Assembly (NCBI GenBank): GCA_963753595.1
Contig: CAVWCX010000001.1
Location: forward strand, 1 to 64,000
Length of the DNA: 64,000 nucleotides
Origin: Candidatus Methanoperedenaceae archaeon
Lineage (GTDB): Archaea; Halobacteriota; Methanosarcinia; Methanosarcinales; Methanoperedenaceae
Direction: 5' to 3'
Shown here: positions 10,960-64,000 of the stretch, in pieces
Layout of the letters: each line of letters opens with the position of its first letter
Position numbering within the stretch: position 1 is the stretch's first letter
Program-made: the position numbers and the translations under genes
Notes under the pieces: generated by a model
Database searches by the model: none
What the model saw: only the letters and a program-made list of their open reading frames with translations
What the model was told of the DNA's origin: nothing

Positions 10960-10961
10960 GG

Positions 10962-11683: not shown

Positions 11684-11758
11684 AATGCGTATAATGTTCT
11701 GCTACTATTTAATATTTGCCCATATATTCTTTAAAAAGAATAATTATTATTATGCTCA

Positions 11759-39970: not shown

Positions 39971-40082
39971 TCAAGTCGGGGGCATCAGGAGGAATGCATG
40001 AGTTTTTTTGAAAATTATTCGTTGTATTGGATAATATCGACAATACAGGCACAAAATCTTATCGAAATAAGGAGGTTCGGGG

Positions 40083-43148: not shown

Positions 43149-44495
43149 ATGTTAGAATGAAGCATTATTGAGAGAAACCCATGGTGGGCAACTGGAAAAG
43201 TGCCTGAAGAGCTTACAGGCATAAAACGAACAGAATACCTCTCAAAAATAGCAGAGCGTTTAAAAGACCGCAAGCTATTGGCGATCCTGGGCATAAGGAG
43301 AAGCGGAAAATCAACGCTCATATATCAATCAATTAAGTATCTTCTTGAAAATGGTACAGACCCAAAGAATATATTCTATTTAAATGCAGATGATTTCGAG
43401 AAGCCAGGAAGAAACTCGCTTGAGGAATCACTTGACTTCTGCCAGCAGAAGAACATGGTCTTCCTGAAAGATAAAAAGATCCATGTGTTCATCGATGAGA
43501 TACAGAACATCAAGGGATGGCAGATGCTCTTGAAAAAATATTATGATCTCAAATATGCCTCAAAATTCATTGTATCTGGCTCATCTTCCAGCCTTATTTA
43601 TAAAAACTCATCGGAAAGTCTTGCCGGAAGAATTAACTTTATTGATGTTTTTCCGCTCACATTCAGGGAGTTCCTGCAATTCAACAACATGGATATACCT
43701 GAGGTACCTTTTGATTTTAACTCCCTGAAAAGTATCTATTACAATCTTTCCCCGAAATGCAACGAGATAACAGGTTTTCTGTCACAGTACCTGAACCTCG
43801 GAGGATTTCCGGAATGGTTCGATATAAAAAATGAAGACGTATGGTTCAAAATACTCGCTGATGAATATACAAGCCTTCTCATATACAGGGATATTGTAAG
43901 GGTTTTCAGGATTCGTGACCCCCTGTTGCTTGAATCCGTATTCAGGTTTGCTTGCGCTCATTCAAGTGAGCGGTTCAGTTATCTTGGAATTGCAAAACAA
44001 AATGATGGGGACAAGGAAACATCAAAACAATATATTTTTCATCTCGCTCGATCTCATCTAATACATTTATCAGATTATTATACAAAAAGCAAAAAGGCTT
44101 CAGAGAGAAAGGAGAAAAAGATATATTTTTGCGATACCGGTCTTAAGAATTCCATTGGAGGGCGGCAGGATATTGGTTTTGATGCTGAAACATCGGTATA
44201 TTTGCACTGCCTCAAGCATGTCTCTGGCTACCCCATCGGAAAGATATTTTACTGGCTTGATAAGAAAAAGAATGAGACAGACATTATAATGAGTTACGGG
44301 TCTGTTTTGATCCCGGTTGAAGTAAAATATAGGACATCTATTGATGATGGTGATCTGAAAGGGATACTGAATTTTTGCATAAATTTCGGCGTTAAAAATG
44401 CGTATGTTGTAACAAAAGCACTCATTGAGGAAAGAGATATCGAAGGTATCCGGATTTCATTCATTCCTTTATGGTTGTTTTTGCTCGTATTTTGA
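43149..44495 (+). CDS. AAA_14 ATPase with DUF4143; in-frame TGA at codon 4
   Basis: NPWW, GIRRSGKST, IDEIQ, SGSS, GGFPE, EVKY; ATG TTA GAA TGA at 43149-43160. Confidence 0.85.
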
Positions 44496-45155
44496 GATAA
44501 GGAATAATCCTGTCCGCGCGAACAAATTAGGAAACAAACCGAAAAATCCATTATTACCAATAAAAGCACATCTCTTGATCCTGATATCCTGCCTCTTGCA
44601 ATAATCCCTGAAATCAGTTATGCTCAGGAAATGCAGGTTAGGCGTTTCATACCATTGGTATGGTAATGAGGGTGTCAAAGGCGTTTTTCCCCTGAAAAAT
44701 ATCTGGAACCTCGAATTATAATGTGCAAAATTCGGAAATCCAACGATCACTTCTTTTCCAACCCTCAAAGACTCCTTCAGAACTATATCCGGCTTTTTCA
44801 CCTGCTGGATGCTCTGGTTCAATATCACATAATCAAATGACTCCTCGCCATATTCTGAAAGACCATTATCAATATCCTGATGGGATACGCTCAAACCAAG
44901 TTCAACGCATTTATAGATCGCCTGTTCATCGATCTCGATACCCCGGCCCTTGGCATTCTTTTCCTTTACTATCCATGATAGCAATTCTCCTTCGTGGCAT
45001 CCAAGATCAAGCACCCTGGAATCATTTTTGATCCAATCAAGGATGATATTATAATCTGGTCTTACAGGTTCTTTCCCAAGGTCGTTCAGAAATCGCCATG
45101 CGCCTTCGTTCAATACAGAGAGGAGAATTGTGTTCAAACTAAATTTAGATAACAT
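44469..45155 (-). CDS. metW: Methionine biosynthesis protein MetW (start uncertain)
   Basis: RVLDLGC..G, FDYVILNQ, GFPNFAH, LPYQWYETPNLH; follows metX. Confidence 0.9.
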   Translation of the reverse strand: MLSKFSLNTILLSVLNEGAWRFLNDLGKEPVRPDYNIILDWIKNDSRVLDLGCHEGELLSWIVKEKNAKGRGIEIDEQAIYKCVELGLSVSHQDIDNGLSEYGEESFDYVILNQSIQQVKKPDIVLKESLRVGKEVIVGFPNFAHYNSRFQIFFRGKTPLTPSLPYQWYETPNLHFLSITDFRDYCKRQDIRIKRCAFIGNNGFFGLFPNLFARTGLFLISKYEQKQP

Positions 45156-45363
45156 TAGAAACCACCAATTCTAAGACTTTTAATTCTCTTCTCGTTTGTA
45201 AAACCGCAGAGAGCACAGAGGACACAGAGAAAAGCGGCGCAGCTATGTGTACTGGTATGGCCGACTCTGTGTTTGATCAATTTTCCGGCACCTTCTTTTC
45301 CCAGAATAAAAAAATCTGCCAATTCTTTGAAAACCATAAAGATCGATTTTGCCAAAATCATTA

Positions 45364-46551
45364 TCAGACGTCCTCTGAAGCCACTGCATACCCATTGAAC
45401 ACCTTTTTCAGGAAATGCCTGACCAGATGCGTTTCCTCTTCGATTTCCAGAAGGAATGCATCATGCCCGTATGTGGAATTTATTTCGCAATACGTAGCCT
45501 CGATTCCTGCCAGTTTGCATATTTTCAAGATATCTTTTGATTGGTAAGTCGGGTATAGCCAGTCTGATTTGAAAGCCATTATCAGGAAATTTGCCCTGAT
45601 ATCTTTAAAAACTTCAAGGAGCGTCCTGCCATTTGAAAGATCAAAATAATCCAGCGCTTTTGTAATATACAGGTAAGAATTGGCGTCAAACCTCTTGACA
45701 AAATTATCCCCGTGATAATGAAGATATCTTTCTACTTCAAATTCCGCCCCGAATCTGGATTGGATATTCCCGTTCTTGATGCGCCGCCCGAATTTCTCAC
45801 TCATTGAAGTATCGCTCATATAAGTGATATGACCGATCATCCGTGCCACTGCAAGACCTTTTGATGGAGGTGGGCCGCCGTAGTAATTCCCCCTTTTCCA
45901 TTGAGGGTCTGCCATAATCGCCTGCCGTCCTGCCTCATTAAAAGCGATCTGCTGCGGAGAATGTTTAAGCGTCGCAGCAATTGGAATGACGGAGCTTACT
46001 CTTTCAGGATATGAAGCAGCCCACTGCAGCGCCTGCATTCCACCCATCGAACCGCCCACAACGCACAGTAGCTTTTCAATTCCAAGATGATCTATTAAGT
46101 ACTTCTGGGCATTGATCATATCTTTGATGGTGATCGTCGGAAAATCCAGCCCGTATGGCCATTTTGTTACAGGATTGATAGACGAAGGGCCGGTCGAACC
46201 TTTGCAACCGCCAAGCACGTTGGAACAGATAACAAAATATTTATCAGTATCAAATGCTTTTCCCGGCCCTATCATCTCATCCCACCAGCCGGATTTATCA
46301 TCCCCGCTATAAAAACCGGCTGCGTGAGCATCTCCGGAGAGGGCGTGAAGGACAAGTATCGCATTGGTTCTCCCAGGATTGAGCCTGCCGTATGTTTCAT
46401 ATGCAAGTGTTATAGGCCCCAGTTTTTCACCAGAGTCCAGGATCAACTCATCCGGGGGAGAAGCGAAAGTAAAGAACCTGATCCCTACTAGTCCGATACT
46501 TTGCGTCGGTTTTACGTTTCGCAGACTATCCAATACGATCGTTTCGCTCAT
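45364..46551 (-). CDS. metX: Homoserine O-acetyltransferase
   Basis: HALSGD, GGSMGG, RFDANSY, GHDAFL. Confidence 0.95.
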
Positions 46552-46561
46552 GGTATGTCAA

Positions 46562-48259
<1,698 letters not shown>

Positions 48260-48273
<14 letters not shown>

Positions 48274-48604
48274 AAGAGGCGAAGTTTATTGGGTCAAACT
48301 CGATCCGATCGAAGGATCAGAGATCGGGAAAACAAGACCAGCTGTCGTGATCTCAAATAATATTAACAATGAATTTGCTGATACTTTAACTGTCATTCCT
48401 GTCACTTCAAGTGTTGGGAAAGTGTACCCTTTTGAAGTTCTCATAAAGAAAGGTATTGCAAATGTATCAACCGATTCTAAAGTCAAGGCAAATCAAATAA
48501 GAACGGTGGATAAAAAGAGGCTGAATGAGCGAATAGGGATAATTCCTGATGAGATATTGAAAGAGATAGAGAAAGCCGTGAAGATCCACCTTGAAATTAA
48601 GTAA
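48260..48604 (+). CDS. mazF: MazF/PemK endoribonuclease toxin
   Basis: RGEVYWV.LDP..GSE.GKTRPAVVIS, QIRTVDK.RL. Confidence 0.93.
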
Positions 48605-51150: not shown

Positions 51151-51510
51151 TTATACGCGCGAATCTCTCAGCCTGTATTTAGCATACGCCAGAACATTCT
51201 CCTCAATGAACCCCGGAGCTTCAACTGGCTCTATACCCATGCTCTGCAATCCTTCTGCAGCCCCTCCTCCGATCCTGCTGCACAGCACCGCATCGCAGTC
51301 ATTGATCAGAGAAACACTTTTTTCAAGAGCATCATCGGCATGACCGCCATACTCAAGAGTACCGCATGAGGGATCGTTCTCTCTCACCTCAATGACTTTG
51401 ATCCCTTCTCCATCGGATTCTATTATGATGAATTTTCTTGCCTTCCCGAAATGCTGGTTAATAACCTTACCATCACTTGAAGCAATTGCCATCTTTAAAC
51501 TTGTCTTCAT
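51151..51510 (-). CDS. NifB/NifX-family cofactor-binding protein
   Basis: AIASSDG..INQHFGKA, DCDAVLCSRIG. Confidence 0.9.
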   Translation of the reverse strand: MKTSLKMAIASSDGKVINQHFGKARKFIIIESDGEGIKVIEVRENDPSCGTLEYGGHADDALEKSVSLINDCDAVLCSRIGGGAAEGLQSMGIEPVEAPGFIEENVLAYAKYRLRDSRV

Positions 51511-51514
51511 GATC

Positions 51515-52378
51515 TCACACCAGCGGTCTTGGCTGCTTTTCATTGGGCAGTACCGGGAGCTTCATCGTATTCACAAGGATCGGGTCTTTCACTTCTTTTG
51601 CCCGCTCAAGCAAAAACTCTCTTCCTCTTCTGGTGATCGCGAATATGGGTACAGCCGTGCCGAATTGCGCTATGGTCTTTCCAGCTACGCCAGCCCGTAT
51701 CCATTTTGATGTGCAGCCTGTGGTCATATCCACAAGATCGATAAATTCTTTTGCTTCGTTATCAGGCATGCCTGTTGAATGTACTCCGAATGCTATTACT
51801 TCAGAGCCGGTTTCCTTTTCGATTTTTCTTATTTCTTTGAGATCTTTGAGATTTGCCACGGATACACCTATCTTCCTGTATCCAAGCTTTATGGCTTTTC
51901 TCACCCCGCTCACCTGGTCTATCGCGGCAGTGTCGGGGTCAATGACCACGCCGTCAGCAGCCTCTATCCTTTTGATCAGCCCCTGTATTGGTGACGTCTC
52001 CGTCAGTCCTGATATGCGCGAGCCCATGCCCTGACAGAGTTTGGGATTGCTCGTGATTACTGTGCCCGCCCCGTCGCAAACGGTAACTGTGGTGTCGAGC
52101 AGCCCGCGCCGCAGGGCGGTCATGAAAGTTTCGCTTGCCCCGAACCCCACGAATATCTCCATCTCCAGTTCACGGTTCTCTGTGAACATGCCGAAATCTT
52201 TCATCCTGAATTCTATATTTTCCCTGGCGGTCTTTGGGGTGAATTTCTTGATCCCCCTGACCTTATCAAAGATGGGACAGTACTCAGTCATCGGAACACC
52301 GACCTCAATTACCTTCCCGTTCTCAATGACTACTCGCGTTCTGCCCTGAAGTTCCATTACATGTCGTTCTTTTGGCAT
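51515..52378 (-). CDS. Methanogenesis marker protein 8 (DUF2099)
   Basis: HVME..G, YCPIF, NIEFR..DFGMFT, FGASE, VCDGAGTV, SGL.ETSPI. Confidence 0.9.
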   Translation of the reverse strand: MPKERHVMELQGRTRVVIENGKVIEVGVPMTEYCPIFDKVRGIKKFTPKTARENIEFRMKDFGMFTENRELEMEIFVGFGASETFMTALRRGLLDTTVTVCDGAGTVITSNPKLCQGMGSRISGLTETSPIQGLIKRIEAADGVVIDPDTAAIDQVSGVRKAIKLGYRKIGVSVANLKDLKEIRKIEKETGSEVIAFGVHSTGMPDNEAKEFIDLVDMTTGCTSKWIRAGVAGKTIAQFGTAVPIFAITRRGREFLLERAKEVKDPILVNTMKLPVLPNEKQPRPLV

Positions 52379-52455
52379 AATTTGCCTCCTTATATTATGA
52401 ATAGTCCTTGCATACTTTTAACGGCTGGCTTTTCGGCAAATTGAGTGAAAAAAGA

Positions 52456-52468
52456 GGCAAATTTTGCC
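52456..52468. promoter_or_regulatory. Best copy of putative operator GGCAA-N3-TTGCC
   Basis: GAGGCAAATTTTGCCTC; variants at 49679, 50073, 50725, 59411, 60722, 62067, all intergenic and upstream of genes. Confidence 0.6.
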
Positions 52469-52543
52469 TCAATTGTATAGCTCGTTAGGTGGGTTTAATG
52501 TTGAGAATTAAGCAATTTTTCCTTTTCGGCAATAACTTACCAA

Positions 52544-52777
52544 TCACCCCTTCTTCACAAAAATGTGGTATGCTCCCTCTTTTGTTTTGACATCAAGGAA
52601 CTCATCACCGGATTTTGTCAACCATACATCGATATTTTGCCAGGCTTCAGGATCGCTGGCTATGACCTCGAGTATTTCACCTTTGTTGAGTTTTCTTAAT
52701 TCCTGAAGTGTCATTACTCGTGGATAGGGGCATTTCTCTCCACGGACGTCCAGCTTAACATTTGAAATTATGGTCAT
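52544..52777 (-). CDS. TusA/SirA sulfurtransferase
   Basis: LDVRGEKCPYP, GEILEVIASD. Confidence 0.92.
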   Translation of the reverse strand: MTIISNVKLDVRGEKCPYPRVMTLQELRKLNKGEILEVIASDPEAWQNIDVWLTKSGDEFLDVKTKEGAYHIFVKKG

Positions 52778-52788
52778 TATTAACCGCC

Positions 52789-53829
52789 TTATTTTTTATT
52801 TATATCTGCAATTGCCGCTTCTAAAAAGCTCTTATCTATCCAGGAATTGTAATCCACTTTTCCTTCCAGTAAATTATTTTCCTTCATGAATTCCTCTTCG
52901 TCTTTCAGGGCTTGAATTGAAAGATCTGTAATTCTCGGGTCATTATAAACGGTCTTATTGTCGGGATACGCTGCCCTTGTAGCTGTCTCGTTTTGTTTTT
53001 TTGCTTTAGCAAATATTTTCATTGCTTCATCAAAATGTTCATCTGCCCATTGCGATGTTTTCAGATCGATTTTCAATAATCTTTTTACGATTTCAGGATG
53101 TTTCTTTGCAAAATCTCCACGAACGTTGATCGGACTTGGTGGTGATTGGAATTCGGGATGATCTTTTCCACTCCATAGTATTCTTGCTTCCCCTGTGGAT
53201 AAAAGTGGAAATGTTGTACTCTCGCTTTCTACAAGAGCATCGACATCCCCTCTTATCAAGGCTGGACCGGAGGCTGTAAAATCGAGATTGAACGATTCAA
53301 TATCTTTGATAGACAATCCCTCTGTTTTCAATGCTTTTGTAATAGTTGCATGGCGCACAGTCCCTTTCAAATAAGCCACTTTTTTGCCTTTTAGATCCTT
53401 GACGGATTTTATAGCTGAATCATTCCTGACTATTATTGAAGAGGCTGAAATCGGATTACCAAAAGATGAGAGCCCAATTAGTTTGATATCTGCACCAGCT
53501 GCTGCGGTACGCAAAGCCGGATCAGTACCAGTATACGTGAAATCAAGACCGCCGCTGGCTAAAGCTACCATAGCTTCGGAGCCTCCGCCAGTAAATGGAT
53601 AATACTCTATTTTTATCCCATCCTTTGCGAATTCTTCATCCAACCACCCTTTTTCTATGTTTAATAAGAATTTGAGATGGCCAGGGGCTGTACTTCCAAT
53701 TTTAATTACTGAGATCTTTTCCTCACTATTTTGTGAGTTATTTTCATAAAAATAAATACCCGCCGAGCCTATTAATAAGGCTATTATCCCAATACTTAAT
53801 GCTGATTTACGTGTCATATTTTCCCACAT
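52789..53829 (-). CDS. SsuA/TauA-type ABC substrate-binding protein
   Basis: N-terminal anchor, F..DGI.IE...F.GG, IKSVKDLKGKKVA. Confidence 0.88.
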   Translation of the reverse strand: MWENMTRKSALSIGIIALLIGSAGIYFYENNSQNSEEKISVIKIGSTAPGHLKFLLNIEKGWLDEEFAKDGIKIEYYPFTGGGSEAMVALASGGLDFTYTGTDPALRTAAAGADIKLIGLSSFGNPISASSIIVRNDSAIKSVKDLKGKKVAYLKGTVRHATITKALKTEGLSIKDIESFNLDFTASGPALIRGDVDALVESESTTFPLLSTGEARILWSGKDHPEFQSPPSPINVRGDFAKKHPEIVKRLLKIDLKTSQWADEHFDEAMKIFAKAKKQNETATRAAYPDNKTVYNDPRITDLSIQALKDEEEFMKENNLLEGKVDYNSWIDKSFLEAAIADINKK

Positions 53830-55233
53830 TTATTTAAGTATCTCTATAAATGATTCTATACGATTCTGTGTCTGTTCAACTGATTCTAATCGTCCCAGTT
53901 CAGCAACTTCCAGGTTAATTGTTGGGACCCCTGTTTCTTCTTTCACAATGTCGGCGATCATCCTGGAAACAGCCGATTGGTAGCTGCATCCCCAGTTATA
54001 GCCGCATATAACACCATCAGCTCTTGATTTTTTCACTAATCCGACTATCCACTCAGCACGCACCTCAGTGGATTGTTCATAGGAATACGAAAGCACGCTT
54101 CGGGCTAATTTTTCATACGAATCGCCTGTTTCCTCAACATCGGCATAAATTTTGTTTAAGTGGTCATCTGTTCCCACTATTAAACCGCCTTTTTCTTCTA
54201 CGAAATCACCGCGAAGACCAAAGCACGAACCGCATGAAAATACCCTGACCGGATCGTCCTCTAATCCATCTGCTTTTACCGAGTGCTTTATCCGATCCTT
54301 TACTTCACGTTTTGCCCCCTCAAGAAGCTGTGTTGCGGCAAGAGAATCGCCTCGATCAAACCTGCCAAGAGTGATAGTACTTGATGTCTCTGTACTATTT
54401 ATTGGAGGAGTTGATGCCGACCAGGAAAGCTCAACCGTTTCACGCGCCAGCCGCCGTCCTTTATTTTCCAGCTTGATCTCCTTTTTCAGATCTTCATCGC
54501 TGGCTTCACTACCTTTTATTTCACCGATCTTTTTTATCAACCCATAAATTCTTGCTGCAAGATATTTTACTGTCCAGTCTTTATCCCGGGTGATAGGATA
54601 ATCGATTAAATATACAGGTACCTTGTGTTTATGAGTTCTATAAGATTCGATCGCATAAGCAATATCTGAGCAGCGTAAGCACATATACGGTGCGATCAGA
54701 TCAACAGGTACTAATTCTTGATGAATTGATTCTATGGCAGCTATTGGATTGTTGCACGCCTCGATAGAGACTGCTTTTCTTCCGCCTTCAAGTATTGTAT
54801 TCACGCGCTTGCCCGCTTCTCGTAAATTTAACCCTTCTTCCATATCCCTTGCCCAGCCCCTGAGTGGTCCTGGAACAATGGGTATCCCTCCGGCTGCAAA
54901 ATAAGGATCAACGGTCTGCCCTCCCTGAACATGTATGATCGGTGTACCCTGGCTATGTGCTTTTAAAAGGCGGTCCCTCAGTGTAAGAGAAAGATAGCCC
55001 CTTTTTATCCCGCTGAAGAATCCCACATCTTTTGACAATTGGCTATTGTGGAATCGTCCCAAACTGAATGCATGGGGAAATCTTCTTGGAGCTTCTTTTG
55101 TCATAAAATTCCAGATATCGGTGGATGAAACATGTGTCCCATCCCTGAAATCAAGTCCAGGGGTTTCTATAAATCGTTCTTTTATTTCTTCGGGGTATGA
55201 AAAGATTTCTTCGTTGTTATTTAATTTATTCAT
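53830..55233 (-). CDS. 2-hydroxyacyl-CoA dehydratase (HGD-D)/double-cubane-like Fe-S protein
   Basis: EACNN, CLRCSD, SCGSC, ADGVI...WGC.YQ, TQNRIESFIEIL. Confidence 0.82.
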   Translation of the reverse strand: MNKLNNNEEIFSYPEEIKERFIETPGLDFRDGTHVSSTDIWNFMTKEAPRRFPHAFSLGRFHNSQLSKDVGFFSGIKRGYLSLTLRDRLLKAHSQGTPIIHVQGGQTVDPYFAAGGIPIVPGPLRGWARDMEEGLNLREAGKRVNTILEGGRKAVSIEACNNPIAAIESIHQELVPVDLIAPYMCLRCSDIAYAIESYRTHKHKVPVYLIDYPITRDKDWTVKYLAARIYGLIKKIGEIKGSEASDEDLKKEIKLENKGRRLARETVELSWSASTPPINSTETSSTITLGRFDRGDSLAATQLLEGAKREVKDRIKHSVKADGLEDDPVRVFSCGSCFGLRGDFVEEKGGLIVGTDDHLNKIYADVEETGDSYEKLARSVLSYSYEQSTEVRAEWIVGLVKKSRADGVICGYNWGCSYQSAVSRMIADIVKEETGVPTINLEVAELGRLESVEQTQNRIESFIEILK

Positions 55234-55245
55234 ATTTCCTCTTAT

Positions 55246-55430
55246 TTATTTAAGTATCTCAATAAATGATTCTATTCGATTCTGTGTTTGTTCTACAGAT
55301 TCCATCCTGCCAAGCTCGGCAACTTCGATATTGATAGTTTGAATTCCTGTTTCTTCTTTAACAATGTCTGAGAGTATTCTGGAGATCCCGGACTGGTAAT
55401 TTGTTTATCCTGTCTATTTGATTGATTCAT
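55246..55430 (-). pseudogene. Internally deleted HGD-D paralog
   Basis: MNQSNRQDKQ joined out of frame to YQSGISRILSDIVKEETG...QNRIESFIEILK, near-identical to the neighbour's C-terminus. Confidence 0.85.
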
Positions 55431-55475
55431 ATTTTTAATCCCATATTTTCATAATTATATATTATAAATAATATT

Positions 55476-56336
55476 TTATAATATTGCTGTATCATGTTCC
55501 CCTTTCCAGTATGTTGCTTTCTTTTCCATCCAAACAAGTGCATAGTTTAGTGATAGACCAATTATTGCAAGAGTTAATATTCCCGCATACATCTCGGGAA
55601 TGCGAAACATTAGCTGGGAATCCTGGACAAAATACCCTAATCCTGATTTAGCAGCCAGCATCTCAGCGCCAATTACTACCATCACAGCCGCTTTGGCTGA
55701 AAGCCTCGCACCGGCGATAATAGATGGAATAGTTGCCGGGATGATGATTTTTTTGAAGAGATCTATATCCGATATCCCAAATGATTTAGCGGCTTTTATA
55801 AAAAGAGGATCAACACTCTTTACCCCACTTATTGTATTAATTAACATATACCAGAGCGCCGCATAAAATACTATAGCGATCTTTGAAGTTTCACCGATTC
55901 CAAACAGCATGATGAATAATGGAAGCAAAGCGAATTGCGATGTGTTTCTTAAACTCTGGATGAGTAGATCCGTATACTTTTCAACACGCGAATACCATCC
56001 CATCAAAAGCCCCAATGGAATAGCAATAATGGCGGCTAATCCAAATCCCAGAATAGATCGTTCCATACTTGCTTTTGCATGAAATAATATTTCTCCAGAT
56101 AAAACAAGATTTTTTAGAGTTAAAACTGTTTCAGAAAAGGTGGGGAAAAATATCGAACTGACTAAACCTGTCCTGGGCAGCACCTCCCATGCAAAAAAGA
56201 AGGCAAACAGAAGTATAAGACCATGAGCATGTTTGCTTATTTTTATAATCTTCTCTTTAAATCTCTTTATAAAGCCTTCGATCCCTAAAAAATCTACTTT
56301 TAATTCTTCTTTAGAACTGAATATTTCTTCTACCAT
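55476..56336 (-). CDS. SsuC/TauC-type ABC permease
   Basis: INTISGVKSVD...IKAAKSFG, GAEMLAAKSGLG. Confidence 0.9.
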   Translation of the reverse strand: MVEEIFSSKEELKVDFLGIEGFIKRFKEKIIKISKHAHGLILLFAFFFAWEVLPRTGLVSSIFFPTFSETVLTLKNLVLSGEILFHAKASMERSILGFGLAAIIAIPLGLLMGWYSRVEKYTDLLIQSLRNTSQFALLPLFIMLFGIGETSKIAIVFYAALWYMLINTISGVKSVDPLFIKAAKSFGISDIDLFKKIIIPATIPSIIAGARLSAKAAVMVVIGAEMLAAKSGLGYFVQDSQLMFRIPEMYAGILTLAIIGLSLNYALVWMEKKATYWKGEHDTAIL

Positions 56337-56362
56337 CTGTATTATCCTCCTTTTTTTCTTTT

Positions 56363-57199
56363 CTATCTTGCATACACAGATGCCAGCTCCCAATCTTTCT
56401 GTGCTTTGAGTACTTCTTCTTTAAGCGCTCCCCAGACTTTATGCCGGTTGTCTGCGAATTCATTACTTGATCTTATGTCTGCGTCTCTTGGTCTTGAAAG
56501 ATCAATATCTAATATTGTTTTTATAATTCCAGGTCTGGCTGTCATAACAGCGACCCTGTCTGCAAGGAATACTGCTTCGTCGATACTGTGAGTTACGAAG
56601 ATAACAGTTGTATGAGTTTTTTCCCAGATTTTGAGAAGCTCATTCTGAAGAATTTCACGGGTTTGTGCATCCAGGGCGGCATAAGGTTCGTCCATCAACA
56701 ATACATCAGGATTGGTTGCAAGCGCTCTTGCTATGGCAACTCTTTGCTGCATACCACCGGAAAGTTGATAGGGAAATCGATCTCCAAAGTCTGACAACCC
56801 GAATTGAGACAAAAGCTTTTTTGCAATTTGTCCTCTTTCCCCTTTTGGAACATTTCGCATTTCTAGTCCGAATTCTATGTTAGAAAGAGCTGTCCTCCAT
56901 GGAAACAACGCATACTGCTGGAATACATATGCAGTTTTGATATTAGGGCCGTCAAGAATTTTGTCATCGATATAGACTTTTCCGGTGGTATGATTTGTCA
57001 ATCCGCCAATTATATCAAGAAATACTGATTTTCCGCAACCACTTGGACCAACAAGTGTGAGAAATTCCCCTTTTCTGATGTTCAGGTTAACGCCAGCCAG
57101 CACCTCAACTTCATTGGAAATCAAGCCGTTGCTGATCACTTTCTGCCCATCTTTAAGTTTAAATTTTTTCGTAATGTCCTCAGTTCTTATTTTGTCCAA
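56363..57199 (-). CDS. SsuB/TauB-type ABC ATPase
   Basis: GPSGCGKS, LSGGMQQR, MDEP, VTHSIDEA. Confidence 0.93.
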   Translation of the reverse strand: MDKIRTEDITKKFKLKDGQKVISNGLISNEVEVLAGVNLNIRKGEFLTLVGPSGCGKSVFLDIIGGLTNHTTGKVYIDDKILDGPNIKTAYVFQQYALFPWRTALSNIEFGLEMRNVPKGERGQIAKKLLSQFGLSDFGDRFPYQLSGGMQQRVAIARALATNPDVLLMDEPYAALDAQTREILQNELLKIWEKTHTTVIFVTHSIDEAVFLADRVAVMTARPGIIKTILDIDLSRPRDADIRSSNEFADNRHKVWGALKEEVLKAQKDWELASVYAR

Positions 57200-57310
57200 T
57201 CAAAACATCTCCTTCCAATCGTATTCGACTGCGGTATTGTCATTAATTCTTGATCGCAGAATTTCAATAAAAGCCTCAACGCGATTTTGAGAGCTGTATA
57301 GCTCTTTCAC
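57200..57310 (-). pseudogene. 36-codon in-frame relic of another HGD-D paralog
   Basis: GGAGGT RBS, GTG AAA GAG CTA TAC then SQNRVEAFIEILRSR... Confidence 0.8.
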
Positions 57311-58500
57311 GCATTTACCTCCTGAATATTTTTATTTCTTACAAGCTCTATAAAAGCCTCAGCTCTTGTTCGTATAGCTCCTTCATCAGAACCGGCATAT
57401 TCCGTATGGATCTCAAGCAAGGGTATTCCCTCTGTTTTGAGAACGTTCTTTGTTTCGCCTGCCTTGAAAGTCCAGGGATCGCAATATCTCAATGTGTGAT
57501 AGATTACTCCCTGCGCCCTGTTGTCTTTGATCAATTGTTTCAGATTTTTAAGCCTCTTATCCGTTTCCAATTCCAAATAAGGTAGCGATGCATGAGGAAC
57601 CCGGTTAAGATATGCGTCTGCTATGCCCTCTATAGAAGGTTCTTTAATATTTACATCCAGGATCGGGTTAAGCCCAGACCACAGGTCATCTCCTACTATC
57701 GTGCCGCCCACCTGCTCGATAATATTTATCAGCTTTCTATCTTTAGGAGGAATTATGCTGCCGGATATGAAAATGCGGGCATCTCCGTTAAGATTTCCAG
57801 TTTTTGGGGTGCCGTGTTTTTCTTTCAGTTCTTTTAAAAGTTCCTGGAGTAATGAATTATACCGCCCTCTATCAAGGTAATATCCTGCCTGTACTATATC
57901 GAAAACTTCACGCCATTTTATAGGTGGTTTGTCAGCTGATTGGTATTTGTATAATTCTATTATGGATTTCCTTATGCTATTGTAAAGTTTGATGGATTCT
58001 GCAAGTTTCTTCTTATCAAGTTCGGTTCCTGCGAATTTTTCTAATCTATGCGTGAAGGCCTCTACTTCTTTGCGGAAATATTCCTGTCCTTCAGGCAGAT
58101 CAAAATTCTTTGGAACTCCAAGAATATCAGTGTTGACCTTGAAGTAATGTTTTATAAGCTCTGCCACGCGGTATGTTTGTAAGCAGGTTGCATCCACTGC
58201 TACCAGATCTGAATTTTTAATATATGGATCCTGGTTCTCTGCAAAGAGCCCTACGAGCTCTCTTGTAAAAACACAATTCTTTGTGGATATATACCTGGAG
58301 CCAATTTCAACCAGTCTGTCGTCTCCTCCTGTTCCAAGCCTGATCGGGATTAATCCAAGGGCGTGGATGATCTCTTCAGGGATATTGTAATTAAACCACC
58401 CAACAACCTTTTCCCCTTTTTTTCTTGCTTCTGCAAGCTCCTGAGGTCTATCCTTTACTGCATTTTCTATTTTGTTTATAGTCTCTAATACCATACTCAC
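57307..58500 (-). CDS. 2-hydroxyacyl-CoA dehydratase subunit (HgdB-like)
   Basis: PEEII.A.G..P, three Cys (KNCVF, ATCLQ, RYCDP), TRAEAFIE. Confidence 0.88.
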   Translation of the reverse strand: MSMVLETINKIENAVKDRPQELAEARKKGEKVVGWFNYNIPEEIIHALGLIPIRLGTGGDDRLVEIGSRYISTKNCVFTRELVGLFAENQDPYIKNSDLVAVDATCLQTYRVAELIKHYFKVNTDILGVPKNFDLPEGQEYFRKEVEAFTHRLEKFAGTELDKKKLAESIKLYNSIRKSIIELYKYQSADKPPIKWREVFDIVQAGYYLDRGRYNSLLQELLKELKEKHGTPKTGNLNGDARIFISGSIIPPKDRKLINIIEQVGGTIVGDDLWSGLNPILDVNIKEPSIEGIADAYLNRVPHASLPYLELETDKRLKNLKQLIKDNRAQGVIYHTLRYCDPWTFKAGETKNVLKTEGIPLLEIHTEYAGSDEGAIRTRAEAFIELVRNKNIQEVNA

Positions 58501-59303
58501 ACCTTTGAGCCATAGCTCCTGGCGAGTACTGCCGCTCCCAGTGCCCCAACCAACTGCGGATCATATTCTGGCGCAACTATCTTCGCTTTAAGTACTTCTT
58601 CCAGCGCTGCTTTCATTCCTACATTTTTTGCAACTCCGCCTGAGAAGAAAACATCGCTCTCCACACCTACACGCGAAAACATCCCTGATATCCTGTTTGC
58701 AATGGCATGGTGTATTCCTTTAATTATATTCCCCGGTTTCTCACCTCTTGCCAGCAGTGAGACTGTTTCGGATTCTGCAAAAACCGTGCATGTGCTGCTC
58801 ATCGGGACGATTTCTTTTGCATTTAATGACAGCGGACCCAGGTCGTTCAGTTTAACCTTAAAAACATTTGCCATAACTTCAAGGAACCGCCCTGTTCCTG
58901 CTGCGCATTTGTCGTTCATTGCAAAATCTACAACGTTTCCTTTCTCATCCAGGCGGATCGCTTTGCAATCCTGCCCACCCATGTCTATTATTGTTCTTGT
59001 TGCAGGGTGCAGGTAATGTGCCCCCCTGCCATGGCAGGTAATCTCGGTTACTGTTTTATCTGCATAAGGCGCTGAGATCCTTCCATAACCGGTTGCAACT
59101 ATGTATTTCAGGTCATCACGCTTGAGTTTTGCAGATTTAAGCGCTTTTTCAAGAGCAAGCAAGCCGCTCTCTTCTGAGTTCAATCCGGATTGAACAAGAC
59201 CATACCCGAGGATCGAGCCATTTGACACAATTACTGATTTTGCTGTCAGCGAGCCTACATCCACACCCGCAAATGGCGGTTTTATATTTGATTTCGTTGT
59301 CAT
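58497..59303 (-). CDS. ATP-dependent activator (HgdC/BadF-BadG archerase)
   Basis: GVDVGS..AK, ATGYGR, EITCH, DMGGQD.K, MNDKCAAGTG, STCTVFAESE. Confidence 0.95.
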   Translation of the reverse strand: MTTKSNIKPPFAGVDVGSLTAKSVIVSNGSILGYGLVQSGLNSEESGLLALEKALKSAKLKRDDLKYIVATGYGRISAPYADKTVTEITCHGRGAHYLHPATRTIIDMGGQDCKAIRLDEKGNVVDFAMNDKCAAGTGRFLEVMANVFKVKLNDLGPLSLNAKEIVPMSSTCTVFAESETVSLLARGEKPGNIIKGIHHAIANRISGMFSRVGVESDVFFSGGVAKNVGMKAALEEVLKAKIVAPEYDPQLVGALGAAVLARSYGSKV

Positions 59304-59448: not shown

Positions 59449-60639
59449 TCATGATGCTGATGTTTTTCGATTCAATTCATTTTTTCCACTAACAATAATA
59501 TAAAGTGCCATAACCCCAAACAGAGGTATAAAAGACAGGAAAATTGCCTGTGTGCTGAAAAAATCTCCGATAATTCCTCCCAGCGTTGGCCCGAATATTG
59601 AACCCATGCCATGACCGAAAGAGAAGATGCCCGCTATCTTGCCCTTCTCTCCGTCAATATTTCCGACCTGTGTAAATGTAATAAGTGTGATCAAACCTGA
59701 GCTCATTCCAATAACGACAGATGCTATTGAAATCTGAAAAATATCCCTGCTCATTCCCATAACCAGCAGAGCGAGAATGCTTACAATAAAACTGAATAAA
59801 TACAGGTTATTATTGTTTTTACGAAGCAACTGCCCCCCTAAAAATACCACACAAATAGTTGCGCCTCCCTTTAGCGCTATTAACATAGCAGCTACACCTG
59901 CAGATAAATCAAGGTCTTTGATCACAAGAACAGTGATGAAGGTAATAAAAGTAACAAAAAATGCACCATTTATACTCTCAATAATTGTTGCAGTTACTAA
60001 GGACCTGTTTTTTGCAAGCGCCTTGTAATGATTTGAGGCATCTGCAAATCCAAAATTTTTTGGTTTAGCAGGTAAATTGCTTCCACTATTTGTCCGGGCA
60101 AGAATAACTATGAACGGCGCAAGTAAAAATACGCTTGCAAGTGCGAAATAGCTTTTATAACTTATAACTACTATGGCCATTCCCCCAAGAACAGGCCCTA
60201 TCAATGAACCACCCACATTCATCGAACCCTTGAACCAGCCTCCTTTTTTGATGCCAATGAGGTTCATATTCTTGAAAAAATCAGCGTTGAGTGCGGTTGT
60301 TCTTAGACTTCTTGCCATGCCGAAAAATATCATACTGAAAAGAAGAAGTTCAATACTGGATACATATGAGATGAGAACAATTATTGATGAACCCATTACA
60401 GCGCTTACAGAGTACATCTTTTTGGAACCTAAATAATCCACCATGAATCCCGCAGGTAATACTACAAGTAAATCCCCGATCCCGGCTATCCCTTTGATCA
60501 GCCCGATCTGAGTAGAAGAAGCGTTCAGGCTGAGTGCGTAAATAGGCAGTATTAAATTCACCATACCCATCGCAATACCGGTGCTTATATTGATGAGCAT
60601 AAATTTTAAAATAAGCTCATTACCCTTGAAAATCTTCAC
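59449..60639 (-). CDS. MFS transporter
   Basis: 12-TM pattern, G..VDYLGSKK motif A. Confidence 0.9.
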   Translation of the reverse strand: MKIFKGNELILKFMLINISTGIAMGMVNLILPIYALSLNASSTQIGLIKGIAGIGDLLVVLPAGFMVDYLGSKKMYSVSAVMGSSIIVLISYVSSIELLLFSMIFFGMARSLRTTALNADFFKNMNLIGIKKGGWFKGSMNVGGSLIGPVLGGMAIVVISYKSYFALASVFLLAPFIVILARTNSGSNLPAKPKNFGFADASNHYKALAKNRSLVTATIIESINGAFFVTFITFITVLVIKDLDLSAGVAAMLIALKGGATICVVFLGGQLLRKNNNNLYLFSFIVSILALLVMGMSRDIFQISIASVVIGMSSGLITLITFTQVGNIDGEKGKIAGIFSFGHGMGSIFGPTLGGIIGDFFSTQAIFLSFIPLFGVMALYIIVSGKNELNRKTSAS

Positions 60640-60763
60640 GCCTAAACTCTAAAAAGCAGATATATAGCACTATACAAATCAGCAAGTGTTACCGTATTTA
60701 TTCGGAAAAACGAACGTTTGAGGCAATTATTTTCCGGGCTGGCTTAGAACTGTATAACCAGTT

Positions 60764-61984
60764 TTACCCGGCGGTATTTTCTTCAACATTTTCAGGTAAT
60801 TTGCTGATGTTTTCAGATACGATTTTTTTACCACTAATGAATGTATGAATTGCCATCGCGCTAAATGGGATCATAAAAGCAAGAAAAATCGCCTGCACAC
60901 CATAAATATCCCCGATTATTCCACCAAGCGTAGGGCCAATTATAGCGCCAATGCCGTGACCGAAATTAAAGAACCCTGCTATCTTACCTTTTTCCCCATC
61001 CAGACTTCCGACTTCTGTAAAATTGATAAGAGTGATCAGACCGGTGCCTAACCCGTTTAACAACGAGGCCAGACCAAGCTGAATAGTATCAGTTCCTACC
61101 CCCAAAAAAAGAAGTGAAAAAACAGTGGTGATATATGCGAATAAATATAATCTGTTATTGTTCTTCTGCAAGTATGCACCTCCCATGAATACAACAAGCA
61201 AAGTGGACAATCCTTTTAAAGAGATAAGGGCCGCTGCAATACCAGGGGATAACCCCAGGTCTTTGATCACAAGTACTGTAATAAAAACCGTAAATGTCAT
61301 GAAAAATGCGGTATTAATGCCATTTTTGATAGTCGCACTAACCAGGGTCTTGTTCTTTGTAAGAGACAAATAGTGGCTAGAACTGCCGATCAAACTGAGA
61401 TTCTGTTTTTTCACATGCGAACGTATCTTATTTTTTGAGCCGGCATTTATCACCATGAGTGGTATTATTAAAATTGCACCCGTTATAAGAAAATAGCTAT
61501 TAAAACTGAGGGCTACTGCAGCTATACCGCCGATCATAGGTCCCAACAAAGCTGATCCTATGGTCATTGAACCCTTGTACCATCCGGCTTTTTTTACACC
61601 TATTGTATTCATGTTTTGGAAAAATGCAGCGCTTAACGACGTAGTCCTGAAAGTTCTGGCCACACCGTAGAATATCATGGTCAATAAGAGAATTTTCGGA
61701 CTGGCAGCCAGTGATAATAGCATTATTATCACAGCGCTGCAAATGCAGCTTATCGAATATGTTTTTCTTGATCCTAAATAATCCACAATAAATCCGGCGA
61801 CCAGCACTACAAGGATGTCTCCGATGCCTGAAAATCCTTTTATCATACCTATTTCGGTAGAAGTTGCATTCAGGCTGAGGGCATACACAGGGATGATAAA
61901 ATTCATCATGCCAATGGCAATTCCGGAACTGATATTTATTAGCATGAATCTGAAAATAAGTTCGTTGCCCCTGAAAAATTTCAT
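60764..61984 (-). CDS. MFS transporter (tandem paralog, duplicated with its promoter)
   Basis: Similar to 59449-60639; ~100 bp of upstream sequence also conserved. Confidence 0.9.
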   Translation of the reverse strand: MKFFRGNELIFRFMLINISSGIAIGMMNFIIPVYALSLNATSTEIGMIKGFSGIGDILVVLVAGFIVDYLGSRKTYSISCICSAVIIMLLSLAASPKILLLTMIFYGVARTFRTTSLSAAFFQNMNTIGVKKAGWYKGSMTIGSALLGPMIGGIAAVALSFNSYFLITGAILIIPLMVINAGSKNKIRSHVKKQNLSLIGSSSHYLSLTKNKTLVSATIKNGINTAFFMTFTVFITVLVIKDLGLSPGIAAALISLKGLSTLLVVFMGGAYLQKNNNRLYLFAYITTVFSLLFLGVGTDTIQLGLASLLNGLGTGLITLINFTEVGSLDGEKGKIAGFFNFGHGIGAIIGPTLGGIIGDIYGVQAIFLAFMIPFSAMAIHTFISGKKIVSENISKLPENVEENTAG

Positions 61985-62819: not shown

Positions 62820-64000
62820 TCAGATGACCTCCCTCGGGTCTGCGATCTCACCACGAAGCGCGCTTGCAGCCGCAGTTTCAGGCGAAGACAGGTAAATCAA
62901 TCCTCCTGCCCCCATACGTCCTTTGAAGTTCCGGTTGGATGTGGAAAGACACGTCTCGCCTTCACATATTACTCCCTGGTGGGCGCCAAGACACGGCCCG
63001 CATCCGGGCGGCGCAATAACAGCGCCTGCTTTAAGAAGAGTGGAAATTATCCCGGATTCTGTGGCTTTTATGAGTATCGAACGCGAAGCTGGAAGCACGA
63101 TCGTCCTGGTTTTCACCTGCTTTCCATGCAGGATCTTTGCAACTACCTCAAGATCTTCGTACCTGCCATTAGTACAGGAACCTATGAAAACCTGGTCAAG
63201 AGGTGTCCCAACGACTTCGCTTATATTGAAAACATTATCCACTTCATGCGGTTTTGCGATCTGCGGTTCAAGGTTTGTCACATCATAATATAAATCTTCG
63301 AAGTATTTGGCATTGTCATCAGCATAAACCGGTTCATATTTTTCTTTTGCCTTTCCATTCAGAAAAGTGAAAGTTTTCTCATCAGCCGGCACTATGCCGG
63401 TTTTTGCTCCCATTTCTATGGACATATTGCAAAGCGTCATACGCTGCGCCATGGAAAGGTCTTGGATTGTCTCCCCATAATATTCGATGGCTTTATAATT
63501 AGCGCCATCGGTTCCTATGTTTTTGATTATATTAAGTGTCAGGTCTTTTGCCGATACCCCTTTGAAAGCTTTCCTTCTACCGTTATCCTGATAGTCTCTG
63601 GCACTCGAAGCCAGAGTTTTCCTGATGCAAATATCTCTGCCATATCTGTCGCCCCGACACCTGTTGCAAATGCCCCGAACGCCCCGTATGTGCATGAGTG
63701 CGAATCCGCGCCTATTATGAGTTTTCCAGGCAGGGCAAATCCATTTTCAGGAAGCACCTGGTGGCATATACCTTCGCCTATGTCAAAGAAGCTGGTAATT
63801 CCCTGTTCGCGAACCCATTGCCTTATTCCCTGATGCAGTTTGGCGCCGGTATCGGTATGCGCAGGCGTATAGTGATCAAATGGTATGATTATTCGTCCCG
63901 GATCCCATACTTTCTTTACTCCCATCTCCTTAAATGCTTTCACGGCAATAACGCCTGTGCCGTCATGCGCCATCGCATAATCAATATTGGCTATCACAAA
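62820..64000 (-). CDS. leuC: 3-isopropylmalate dehydratase/homoaconitase large subunit; 5'-partial, frameshifted near 63560
   Basis: GICHQ, GADSHSC in one frame; GVSAKD, GSCTNGR, GCGPC.G, SNRNF.GR in another. Confidence 0.88.

Follow-up and report, generated by a model that had tools for sequence, protein, structure and literature searches.

Gene content and architecture of the locus

The window analysed here, a 64,000-nucleotide stretch (positions 1 to 64,000 of contig CAVWCX010000001.1, assembly GCA_963753595.1) from a Candidatus Methanoperedenaceae archaeon, carries a run of nine genes, all on the minus strand and extending from position 59303 down to 51151. In this run, an activator ATPase (archerase) and two HGD-D proteins are encoded together with an ATP-binding cassette (ABC) importer of the sulfonate type, a TusA-family sulfur carrier, the methanogenesis marker protein 8 and a NifX-like protein (Table 1). 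The 37 contigs of the host genome add up to 2.89 Mb, at a completeness of 92%. The list of open reading frames (ORFs) and the profile searches agree with an earlier, sequence-only reading of the same DNA: the nine genes which it named are all present, co-oriented and placed where it had located them; one of the HGD-D proteins, of 467 amino acids (aa) and hereafter called alpha, is indeed richer in cysteine than the other, of 397 aa and hereafter called beta (seven Cys against three); and genes for a coenzyme A (CoA) transferase or an acyl-CoA dehydrogenase are found neither in the run nor in its flanks.

In terms of gene arrangement, the frame of the activator is open from a GTG at 59357, while a GGAGG motif precedes the ATG at 59303, which is most likely the start codon, in line with the end coordinate given by the sequence-only reading. 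The two ABC genes are placed between the two HGD subunit genes, the start of the binding-protein gene abuts the alpha stop, and the TusA gene starts 11 bp after the binding-protein gene. The 242 bp that separate the intact alpha gene from the permease gene contain a relic that aligns with the 3' end of the former with a mean column identity of 88%, which suggests either a deleted alpha module or a partial duplication. The terminator-like hairpin followed by six T residues, located between the TusA and marker 8 genes, is the probable end of the cassette transcript. A sigma-70 promoter scan recorded no excess of sites (29 against 28.2 expected), this model being uninformative for an archaeon. 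Upstream of the activator and on the same strand sits a pair of major facilitator superfamily (MFS) genes, and 3 kb downstream of the run lie three genes for sulfide-consuming homocysteine synthesis.

Table 1. Features of the gene run and its flanks, with the number of alpha-homologue loci that hold a counterpart
Feature	Position in window	Strand	Evidence	Alpha loci
Two MFS transporters, drug/H+-antiporter (efflux) type	59449-61984	-	PF07690 9.7e-30 and 1.5e-27	12/61
HgdC/BcrAD-type activator ATPase (archerase)	58497-59303	-	PF01869 (BcrAD_BadFG) 7.4e-65; TIGR00241 276.6 bits, cut-off 125.4	50/61
HGD-D beta-like subunit, 397 aa, 3 Cys	57307-58500	-	PF06050 1.4e-84	56/61
ABC ATPase, Ssu/Tau/Nrt/Sao type	56363-57199	-	PF00005 3.5e-32	44/61
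ABC permease, SsuC/TauC/SaoP type	55476-56393	-	PF00528 6.5e-24	42/61
Relic of a second alpha gene (3' end: stop and some 50 codons before it)	55240-55400	-	alignment, direct reading	
Divergent HGD-D alpha-like subunit, 467 aa, 7 Cys	53830-55233	-	PF06050 4.7e-45, residues 151-466	
NMT1/SsuA-family binding protein, N-terminal membrane anchor	52789-53829	-	TIGR01728 250.6 bits, cut-off 163.5	45/61
TusA-family sulfur carrier	52544-52777	-	PF01206 7.1e-22, 77.5 bits against 28.6; CPYP motif	6/61, archaeal without exception
Terminator-like hairpin, 7 pairs, then T6	52454-52470	-	between TusA and marker 8	
Methanogenesis marker 8 (DUF2099)	51515-52378	-	TIGR03275 351.9 bits, cut-off 232.7	0/61
NifX/NifB-C-terminal-like (Nitro_FeMo-Co) protein	51151-51543	-	PF02579 1.2e-23	1/61
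MetW, MetX-like homoserine O-acetyltransferase and O-acetylhomoserine sulfhydrylase	44469-48019	-	PF07021 1.2e-68; PF00561; TIGR01326 666 bits against 495	

A conserved six-gene core coupled to import

The conserved core of the run consists of six genes, coding for the activator, beta, the ABC ATPase, the permease, alpha and the binding protein. This emerges from a census of 61 loci with an alpha homologue, drawn from the contigs of one genome per species and annotated with profiles made from the window proteins (last column of Table 1). Among the 47 loci that span at least 10 kb, 41 possess a binding protein of the NMT1/SsuA type, and 38 both this protein and the permease. Since the archaeon's own genome contains five NMT1 matches in 2.89 Mb, only about 0.03 would be expected per 19-kb stretch, so that the clustering is far beyond chance. 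The idea, put forward in the sequence-only reading, that importer and archerase-type enzyme belong together is thereby upheld by a gene neighbourhood kept across phyla, and the enzyme probably acts on the imported solute. In the same line, the view that this is not the context of an ordinary acyl-CoA dehydratase agrees with the lack of CoA-transferase and acyl-CoA dehydrogenase families among all 248 neighbour ORFs of the 47 long loci.

Six long loci are devoid of an NMT1-type binding protein. L036, L064 and L069 hold binding proteins of the Peripla_BP_2 (siderophore/B12) type, the latter two together with FecCD-type permeases, L041 and L044 have family-1/8 (sugar-type) binding proteins, and L068 has a permease only. 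As most of these loci thus possess other import genes, this branch of the superfamily seems to be import-coupled as a rule. L036, L064 and L069, from Methanospirillum lacunae, Methanoregula and the Bacillota, represent a sister subfamily organised as activator-beta-alpha trios; L036 also carries DUF364 'metal chelation' genes, and the gene content of the three loci hints at a different imported substrate. Eight loci of the Chlorobiaceae add an anion-porin gene, which is neutral in terms of function.

Two further observations concern related loci. In a Methanoperedens locus (L053, 13174-17569), four genes for class I S-adenosylmethionine (SAM) methyltransferases are scattered among the cassette genes for binding proteins and TusA. 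Besides, the genome under study encodes a third, smaller HGD-D protein (328 aa) with a short activator (228 aa) at G000:C30:46934-48526 (L009:9357-11026); this gene adjoins one for an ELP3-like radical SAM/acetyltransferase protein and is unrelated to the cassette.

Family placement of the alpha and beta subunits

The solved structure closest to beta is that of the double-cubane cluster protein (DCCP; 7yyl, 4.5e-34), followed by HadC, BzdN and MbdN. Nevertheless, the sequence-only reading's suggestion of a double-cubane protein fails at the level of the ligands: only three of the seven cluster cysteines of 7yyl and 6eno have a counterpart in the aligned beta, the other four positions being non-Cys, and it scores 223.3 bits (alpha 75) on the double-cubane model NF040772, whose cut-off is 350. 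This identity was therefore rejected. The seven-Cys motif, which binds an [8Fe-9S] cluster, is taken here as given in a preprint (bioRxiv 10.1101/2022.07.06.499078).

Cys76, Cys106 and Cys340 of beta are invariant in 13 diverse beta proteins. In alpha, the family alignment reveals four invariant cysteines (160, 188, 337 and 416), whose spacing differs from that of the double-cubane motif, as well as a conserved N-terminal extension of about 150 residues. In DCCP and HadC, the residue aligned with Cys416 is the third cluster Cys, and Cys160 and Cys188 would, in our reading, match the spacing of the first two. The predicted alpha model (predicted local distance difference test score, pLDDT, of 84; predicted template modelling score, pTM, of 0.87) was compared with solved structures using Foldseek, and HadB, BzdO/MbdO and DCCP are about equally far from it (E-values of 3e-13 to 5e-12, 14-18% identity), HadB being the top match (3e-13, TMq 0.65, 14% identity).

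As for the curated models, HadB (NF052455, cut-off 700) gives 118.9 bits for beta and 47.8 for alpha, HadC (NF052456, cut-off 750) 30.1 and 29.5, and the benzoyl-CoA reductase models BcrC, BzdN and BzdQ 108.2, 82.4 and 237.9 bits against cut-offs of 421, 454 and 380. Since the Had, Bcr/Bzd and double-cubane models are all far from being reached, the cassette enzyme belongs to none of the three branches described so far. By its conserved features it would be expected to work like the archerase-driven [4Fe-4S] enzymes, with alpha presumed to be the substrate-specific catalytic subunit, and we infer, purely from homology, that alpha and beta assemble.

The 2-hydroxyacyl-CoA dehydratases (HgdAB/HadBC with HgdC/HadI) likewise combine two different subunits of the HGD-D fold with one HgdC-type ATPase, and share the three-Cys [4Fe-4S] pattern (C76/C106/C340 in beta, C160/C188/C416 in alpha). 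The cassette differs from them by the N-terminal extension and the additional invariant Cys337 of alpha, and by its association with an ABC importer and with alpha/binding-protein pairs outside any CoA-transferase context. DCCP and its partner DCCP-R from Carboxydothermus hydrogenoformans (6eno, 7yyl) resemble it in that an HgdC-type partner drives a low-potential reduction with ATP, but DCCP is a homodimer with seven cluster cysteines, whereas the cassette encodes two unlike subunits, the beta subunit being devoid of four of these residues; to our knowledge, no physiological substrate of DCCP has been reported. Finally, the class I benzoyl-CoA reductases (BcrABCD, BzdNOPQ, MbdONPQ) share the fold, BzdO and MbdO matching alpha as well as HadB does, and couple ATP to a radical-anion chemistry by which, in principle, a ring could lose a leaving group; unlike the cassette with its single ATPase gene and its lack of a CoA-ester context, they possess two ATPase subunits.

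The importer and its binding protein

The binding protein contains no Cys and three Met in its mature part. Its best solved relatives are SsuA (3uif, 4.6e-23; 2x26; 3e4r), TauA (6ssy) and the desulfinase DszB. In TauA, the sulfonate is contacted by Gln30, Gly61, Gly79 and Ser131/Thr132, the backbone amides of the latter three positions holding it (PMC6906117). The binding protein retains the residues at three of these sites, Gly61, Gly79 and Ser131/Thr132 (G, G and T-V), but, on a rough reading, apparently not Gln30.

The other two importer components are less easily assigned to a named system. Among the NCBIfam models, the ABC ATPase is best matched by SaoA (244.7 bits, cut-off 360), then by the nitrate model (227/292), TauB (225.7/357) and SsuB (163.8/395), and the permease by SaoP (160.1/295), TauC (124/342) and SsuC (120.6/347), all below cut-off. 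They are of the same transporter type as SsuBC and TauBC, without being the same equivalogs. The likeness to SsuABC/TauABC thus lies in this transporter type and in a binding protein that passes the SsuA family model, while the difference lies in the partner: SsuD and TauD are O2-dependent oxygenases, in contrast to the anaerobic Fe-S enzyme of the cassette.

A bioinformatic precedent for Ssu-like ABC importers beside archerase-dependent HGD-D enzymes in anaerobes exists in the selenocysteine-assisted organometallic (SAO) loci, which often adjoin double-cubane genes according to Haft and Gwadz 2022 (bioRxiv 10.1101/2022.07.06.499078). The cassette differs from them by the absence of SaoL, SaoE, SaoC, SaoT and SaoD, of selenocysteine and of Cys motifs in the binding protein, which reaches 48.8 bits on the SaoX model (cut-off 300).

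In functional outline, the closest parallel is IsrBHDK with SsuCAB. As described in PMC11423573, this ATP-driven reductase enables Rhodobacter capsulatus to use isethionate as anaerobic sulfur source with release of sulfite, and its locus also codes for a flavin adenine dinucleotide (FAD) oxidoreductase, a cysteine desulfurase and a rhodanese. Both systems would couple an Ssu-type importer to an ATP-driven, oxygen-sensitive Fe-S reductase in order to obtain sulfur from sulfonates without oxygen. The Isr system, however, relies on nitrogenase-like H, D and K proteins and on a radical SAM protein, none of which is encoded in the run, and its function was demonstrated genetically, whereas that of the cassette is deduced.

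Modularity and spread across domains

A binding-protein gene directly adjacent to alpha on the same strand was detected for 37 of 94 alpha genes, and it is located downstream in 31 of these. In the Methanoperedens-type loci L015 and L017, five to six alpha/binding-protein pairs stand in tandem with a single importer; L015 has one beta and one activator, both of which fall beyond the end of the fetched stretch in L017. The relic in the window is the trace of a second alpha, as in these multi-alpha loci. The identities of alpha and of binding proteins co-vary over 32 pairs (r of 0.85, reached by none of 2000 permutations), a correlation inflated by shared ancestry, and in only 15 of the 32 pairs does the module with the nearest alpha also hold the nearest binding protein. 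Across phyla, beta identity ranges from 58 to 91%, against 40-55% for alpha outside its orthologue group. That beta is far more conserved than alpha fits a single shared beta with exchangeable, substrate-specific alphas.

The nearest named relatives of alpha are found in Candidatus Methanoperedens (86-87% identity). Under the names given by their sources, further homologues belong to Clostridium kluyveri (67%), Rhodomicrobium vannielii (61%), Spirochaetales, Chlorobiales, Altiarchaeia and Paenibacillus, the family being small, with 30 cluster representatives at E<=1e-30 among 1.84 billion. The gene order activator-beta-ATPase-permease-alpha-binding protein is identical in the window, in Methanoperedens (L010, L011), in Candidatus Clostridium eludens and a Bacillota bin (L012, L013), and in two Spirochaetia bins (L014, L016). 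In a FastTree phylogeny of 89 sequences and 480 columns, from which six short alpha ORFs were excluded, the seven alphas with this order form a clade with a support of 1.0, apart from the other Methanoperedens paralogues. The cassette hence appears, from tree and gene order, to be transferable and to have spread horizontally between archaea and bacteria. A tblastn search of alpha against 72,556 plasmid records returned no match at E<=1e-30, and there is thus no sign of plasmid carriage in those records.

Evidence for sulfur scavenging

Several lines of evidence link the cassette to sulfur acquisition, the first being its neighbourhood. The synteny with the methionine genes of the window is also found in a congener (L115), with O-acetylhomoserine sulfhydrylase, MetX and MetW. 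In a Bacillota locus with a sister cassette (L056), one flank codes for a cystathionine-type pyridoxal phosphate (PLP) enzyme, CysK (488 bits against 351), CysE and an Rrf2 regulator, and the opposite flank for a homoserine O-acyltransferase. The model that fits this Rrf2 protein best is CymR, though its 149 bits stay under the cut-off of 195. Two further Cys/Met PLP enzymes are present in L057, and a TauE/SafE-family exporter gene in L012.

The second line concerns protein composition: proteins that cells produce when starved of sulfur are known to be economical in this element. Compared to 2086 ORFs of the genome, whose mean Met+Cys content is 3.66%, beta has 1.0% (1.5th percentile), with one internal Met and three ligand Cys, and the binding protein 1.2% (2nd percentile). 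The ABC ATPase lies at the 9th percentile of Met+Cys and alpha at the 4.5th percentile of Met content, while activator, permease and MFS proteins are ordinary in this respect. This poverty is a family trait: the median for the beta family is 1.03% (interquartile range 1.02-1.27; 118 of 120 listed proteins, 370-420 aa), against 4.46% in distant HGD-D relatives (79 of 106, 350-500 aa), and the genome's other HGD-D protein, of 328 aa, has 4.3%. That the system is made for sulfur shortage would explain why its abundant soluble parts hold almost no Met or Cys.

Thirdly, the genome encodes an ATP sulfurylase, a 3'-phosphoadenosine 5'-phosphosulfate (PAPS) reductase-type enzyme and a small sulfite reductase, and no PFL-like glycyl-radical enzyme was found in the 92% of the genome at hand, so that an enzyme releasing sulfite would plug into an existing route and fill a gap. 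In the literature, of which coverage is incomplete, a full-text search retrieved no paper linking HGD-D or activase enzymes to sulfonates.

The sequence-only reading had proposed that an imported sulfur compound is cleaved reductively in an anaerobic scavenging pathway. The scavenging part of this proposal gains support from the kinship of the binding protein, the Met/Cys neighbours, the sulfur-poor composition and the sulfite-assimilation route, while its double-cubane part does not stand. Sulfur scavenging by C-S cleavage of an organosulfonate is the reading preferred here, with a probability put at roughly 0.55, and an anaerobic desulfonase role is plausible. The substrate class, the C-S cleavage and sulfite as its product are what we infer from these lines.

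According to this reading, the membrane-anchored SsuA-family protein and the ABC transporter would take up an organosulfonate or an organosulfur anion close to it. The HgdC-type ATPase, reduced by ferredoxin or a similar donor, would then use ATP to drive a low-potential electron via the cluster of beta to that of alpha, within a heteromeric alpha-beta [4Fe-4S] enzyme. Bound directly by the divergent alpha, without any CoA ester, the imported compound would take up this electron, and the resulting ketyl- or Birch-type radical anion would break the C-S bond, most likely by expelling sulfite from the neighbouring carbon, in analogy with the loss of the hydroxyl group in the dehydratases or with the Birch-type reduction by benzoyl-CoA reductase. 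The genome's small sulfite reductase could convert sulfite to sulfide, to be fixed into homocysteine by the neighbouring O-acetylhomoserine sulfhydrylase, while the MFS pumps may export the desulfonated carbon skeleton.

Some data nonetheless weigh against this reading. Five of the six long loci without an NMT1-type protein use other types of binding protein, and the branch as a whole is thus not sulfur-specific. The position of TauA Gln30 is apparently Ser/Thr in the binding protein, as judged from a rough by-eye comparison of the N-terminal part, beyond the aligned region. A low Cys content is common in extracellular binding proteins in any case, and alpha is only moderately sulfur-poor. LacI-type regulators, which usually answer to carbon compounds, stand beside the cassette in ten Bacillota loci, and no SAM or T-box element was detected upstream of the cassette in any of eight Bacillota loci (130,718 bases scanned). 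A flavoprotein related to flavocytochrome c and ketosteroid dehydrogenase is encoded in nine loci and a phosphomutase-like metalloenzyme in some, additions that hint at processing of a carbon skeleton. The only hits of the riboswitch scan were a group II intron piece and a single SAM riboswitch, the latter in L048, on the downstream side of the HGD genes.

Several of these points would also suit the catabolism, for carbon or energy, or the detoxification of an imported non-sulfur organic anion, such as an aromatic, alicyclic or unsaturated acid, with alpha-beta working as an ATP-driven reductase or dehydratase on the free acid. Such a role could account for the LacI-type regulators and the flavoprotein, as well as for other neighbours (a nitroreductase-ferredoxin protein, a U32-family protein and the phosphomutase-like protein); NMT1-type binding proteins form a broad class, alpha is as close to BzdO/MbdO as to HadB, and many source-bin names suggest, in our reading, bog, lake or termite gut, which are aromatic-rich habitats. 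It is nevertheless considered unlikely. A catabolic function hardly accounts for the extreme and conserved sulfur poverty of beta and of the binding proteins; the window's binding protein passes the SsuA cut-off, and sulfonates or sulfinates are what all of its nearest solved relatives bind or act on; the cassette has Cys/Met biosynthesis genes at its flanks in archaea as well as in Bacillota; no beta-oxidation or CoA-ligase pathway appears in the 248 neighbour ORFs, apart from one AMP-binding enzyme (L066) and one thioesterase (L059); and a methane-oxidising archaeon has, from general knowledge, no evident use for such carbon.

TusA, marker 8 and the NifX-like protein

TusA is an archaeal add-on to the cassette and is missing from all bacterial loci. 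Its gene follows or overlaps binding-protein genes in the congeneric loci L047/L120, L017, L020 and L053, and TusA thus belongs to the cassette in these archaea. The CPYP motif of the window's TusA corresponds to CPxP, the active-site Cys motif of TusA proteins, and both TusA and YedF equivalog models remain below cut-off, YedF being the best (58 bits against 79). The transfer of sulfur to TusA put forward in the sequence-only reading is uncertain, as only 6 of 61 loci, all of them archaeal, encode TusA, and sulfite, should that be the product, would have no evident acceptor in this protein. Just beyond the window (G000:C1:66975-68603, minus strand), two further TusA and three DsrE/DsrH-like genes stand in a row, so that the surroundings related to sulfur extend further.

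After the hairpin and its T6 comes an AT-rich stretch and then the marker 8 gene, which the NifX-like gene overlaps by 29 bp, and this pair is probably a separate unit with its own transcript. Marker 8 was detected in 127 of 201 genomes of the phylum and is present in three copies in the genome under study (C24:110208-110981, C1:51590-52363 and C6:71257-72024). The C6 copy adjoins the mtr operon and a DUF1646 gene, and the C24 copy, 76% identical to that of the window, an ABC-2 transporter and an aconitase-family gene. In the predicted structure of marker 8 (pLDDT 85), residues 73-287 match FrhB-family chains, among them the F420-reducing hydrogenase beta subunit, HCAR and the N-terminal half of the F420-dependent sulfite reductase (Z 9.0-10.7, the next fold being at 5.9). 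This model may be taken as a lead to a redox role linked to flavin or F420. Cys34, Cys101 and Cys222 do not vary among 22 sequences. A full-text search of the literature, incompletely covered, found no paper using 'methanogenesis marker (protein) 8' or DUF2099, and marker 8 is not mentioned in PMC9635834 under the terms searched.

Marker 8, NifX and TusA might be working parts of the pathway, with, for example, an FrhB-like marker 8 feeding electrons from F420H2, and NifX and TusA taking charge of an Fe-S intermediate or of the sulfur set free. Of 52 other genomes in the family, eight indeed have marker 8 and NifX as a contiguous pair; in five of these (L112, L113, L114, L115 and L117), genes for an Ssu-like importer, HGD proteins or TusA lie within a few kb, and TusA or a TusA-DUF5714 fusion stands directly upstream of the pair in L112 and L115, as in the window; the match to the F420-dependent sulfite reductase points the same way. 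Such a participation is yet doubtful: the hairpin splits TusA from marker 8; the proteins of the pair are sulfur-rich (82nd percentile of Met+Cys for marker 8, 89th for the NifX-like protein), unlike the sulfur-poor cassette; the other genomes' alpha loci are almost devoid of both genes (Table 1); none of 31 marker 8 loci across the phylum, two of them from the genome under study, has TusA or NifX-like neighbours; and L118 and L119 hold the pair with no Ssu genes nearby. The proximity seen within a single genus, with co-directional as well as convergent arrangements in the five loci, may reflect an inherited sulfur-island synteny or a real but loose link. The hint of a sulfur-related role for marker 8 given by the sequence-only reading is therefore retained in a weak form, carried by the proximity of the pair to Ssu-like and TusA genes in these five genomes and in the window, and a contribution of marker 8 and NifX to the function of the cassette seems improbable. 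An assignment of marker 8 by analogy with canonical methanogens was dropped in view of the 31 loci.

In the congener locus L115 (G207; 9226-11993), a Prismane/hybrid-cluster-protein gene (617 aa) and the TusA-DUF5714 fusion gene (305 aa) lie directly upstream of the pair, between it and the Ssu-like importer genes.

Other explanations of the linkage

The cassette could also be thought to salvage coenzyme M (CoM) or another sulfonated cofactor for methyl-CoM reductase, the HGD proteins being unrelated or reconditioning the cofactor. CoM is itself a sulfonate, and PMC12068725 reports that ssuA and ssuC of Methanosarcina acetivorans, called there a CoM-specific ABC transporter, rise on CoM starvation. 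From general knowledge, the host uses methyl-CoM reductase chemistry, and the mtr operon is seen in its genome. Such a salvage is however quite improbable, given that Clostridium, other Bacillota and Spirochaetia, for which no use of CoM is known, have a cassette of the same order whose proteins are 57-67% identical, that the ABC genes lie between the HGD subunit genes, and that the alpha stop abuts the binding-protein start. Moreover, a control search found no HGD-D protein in M. acetivorans, whose Ssu system is thus a different arrangement.

Still less probable is a double-cubane-type or SAO-like system reducing small molecules, organometallic or selenium compounds delivered by a Sao-like importer. 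The best NCBIfam and PDB matches of beta, the SaoA and SaoP matches of ATPase and permease, the preference of TusA for the YedF model, and the vicinity of SAO loci to double-cubane genes, as reported in the preprint mentioned above, are in its favour. All corresponding scores fall short of their cut-offs, though (223/350, 245/360, 160/295 and 49/300), three of seven cluster cysteines are kept, the subunits are two and different instead of one, the run is devoid of a MerB-like gene, and the Cys-free binding protein has neither a CC nor a CU motif. The link to selenium was dropped, as no SelD above cut-off was found in the genome.

That an ordinary 2-hydroxyacyl-CoA dehydratase or class I benzoyl-CoA reductase lies among transporter genes by chance, as the Pfam domains HGD-D and BcrAD_BadFG and the source-given database names '2-hydroxyacyl-CoA dehydratase' and 'benzoyl-CoA reductase subunit C' could suggest, is barely credible in the light of HadB, HadC, BcrC and BzdN/O scores far below cut-off (e.g. 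119/700 and 108/421), one ATPase gene and not two, neighbour ORFs without CoA-transferase or acyl-CoA dehydrogenase, and importer linkage kept in 38 of the 47 long loci.

Other features of the window

Between the methionine genes and the NifX-like gene stand a MazF/PemK-type toxin gene (114 aa) and a small upstream ORF (75 aa, no family), at 48046-48604; a MazF gene is also found near the marker 8 pair in the congener locus L114. A 1755-nt insertion sequence coding for a 498-aa DDE transposase is present in two inverted copies, 99% complementary, at 31144-32898 and 38229-39983, which bracket 5.3 kb with further transposase genes; more transposases lie at 33097-34299, 35017-36447 and 41821-43056. 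At the end of the window (62820-64000, and on to 64063 of contig C1), the gene for an aconitase-family large subunit is read as two overlapping ORFs in different frames (291 and 174 aa). In the Methanoperedens loci L010 and L020, one intact aconitase-family gene of about 415 aa is found at the same place, and the split would be either a frameshift or an assembly error.

Implications

The cassette enzymes constitute a distinct branch of the archerase-dependent enzymes, import-coupled, modular and economised in sulfur. A more far-reaching view, which is only tentatively advanced, is that of a fourth, undescribed HGD-D branch acting as a modular desulfonase. In such a system, one beta and one activator would serve interchangeable alphas, each matched to its own binding protein, and a panel of organosulfonates could be stripped without oxygen or CoA, with FrhB-like marker 8, NifX and TusA providing, in Methanoperedens, a possible tie to F420 electron supply and sulfur trafficking.

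Sulfonates are a major sulfur pool in soils, sediments and guts, and few routes are known by which their sulfur is released without oxygen, namely Xsc, the glycyl-radical lyases and Isr, a nitrogenase-like system discovered recently. If the preferred reading holds, that is, sulfur scavenging by C-S cleavage, the cassette would add an oxygen-independent solution built on a different enzyme family. On the more far-reaching view, it would also supply the missing enzyme for the assimilation of sulfonate sulfur, which has been observed in fermenting clostridia since the 1990s.

Within the superfamily of dehydratases, benzoyl-CoA reductases and double-cubane proteins, it would be the first member to act on a free imported anion instead of a CoA ester, and a physiological task would thereby be given to a branch mislabelled in databases as '2-hydroxyacyl-CoA dehydratase' or 'benzoyl-CoA reductase subunit C'. 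The tandem alpha/binding-protein modules offer a natural key to substrate specificity, and the conserved sulfur-poor composition makes the hypothesis directly testable. Finally, the occurrence of the cassette in methane-oxidising archaea, in green sulfur bacteria of iron-rich lakes and in termite-gut bacteria would, if this function is correct, indicate that a limited supply of sulfur exerts selection in anoxic habitats.

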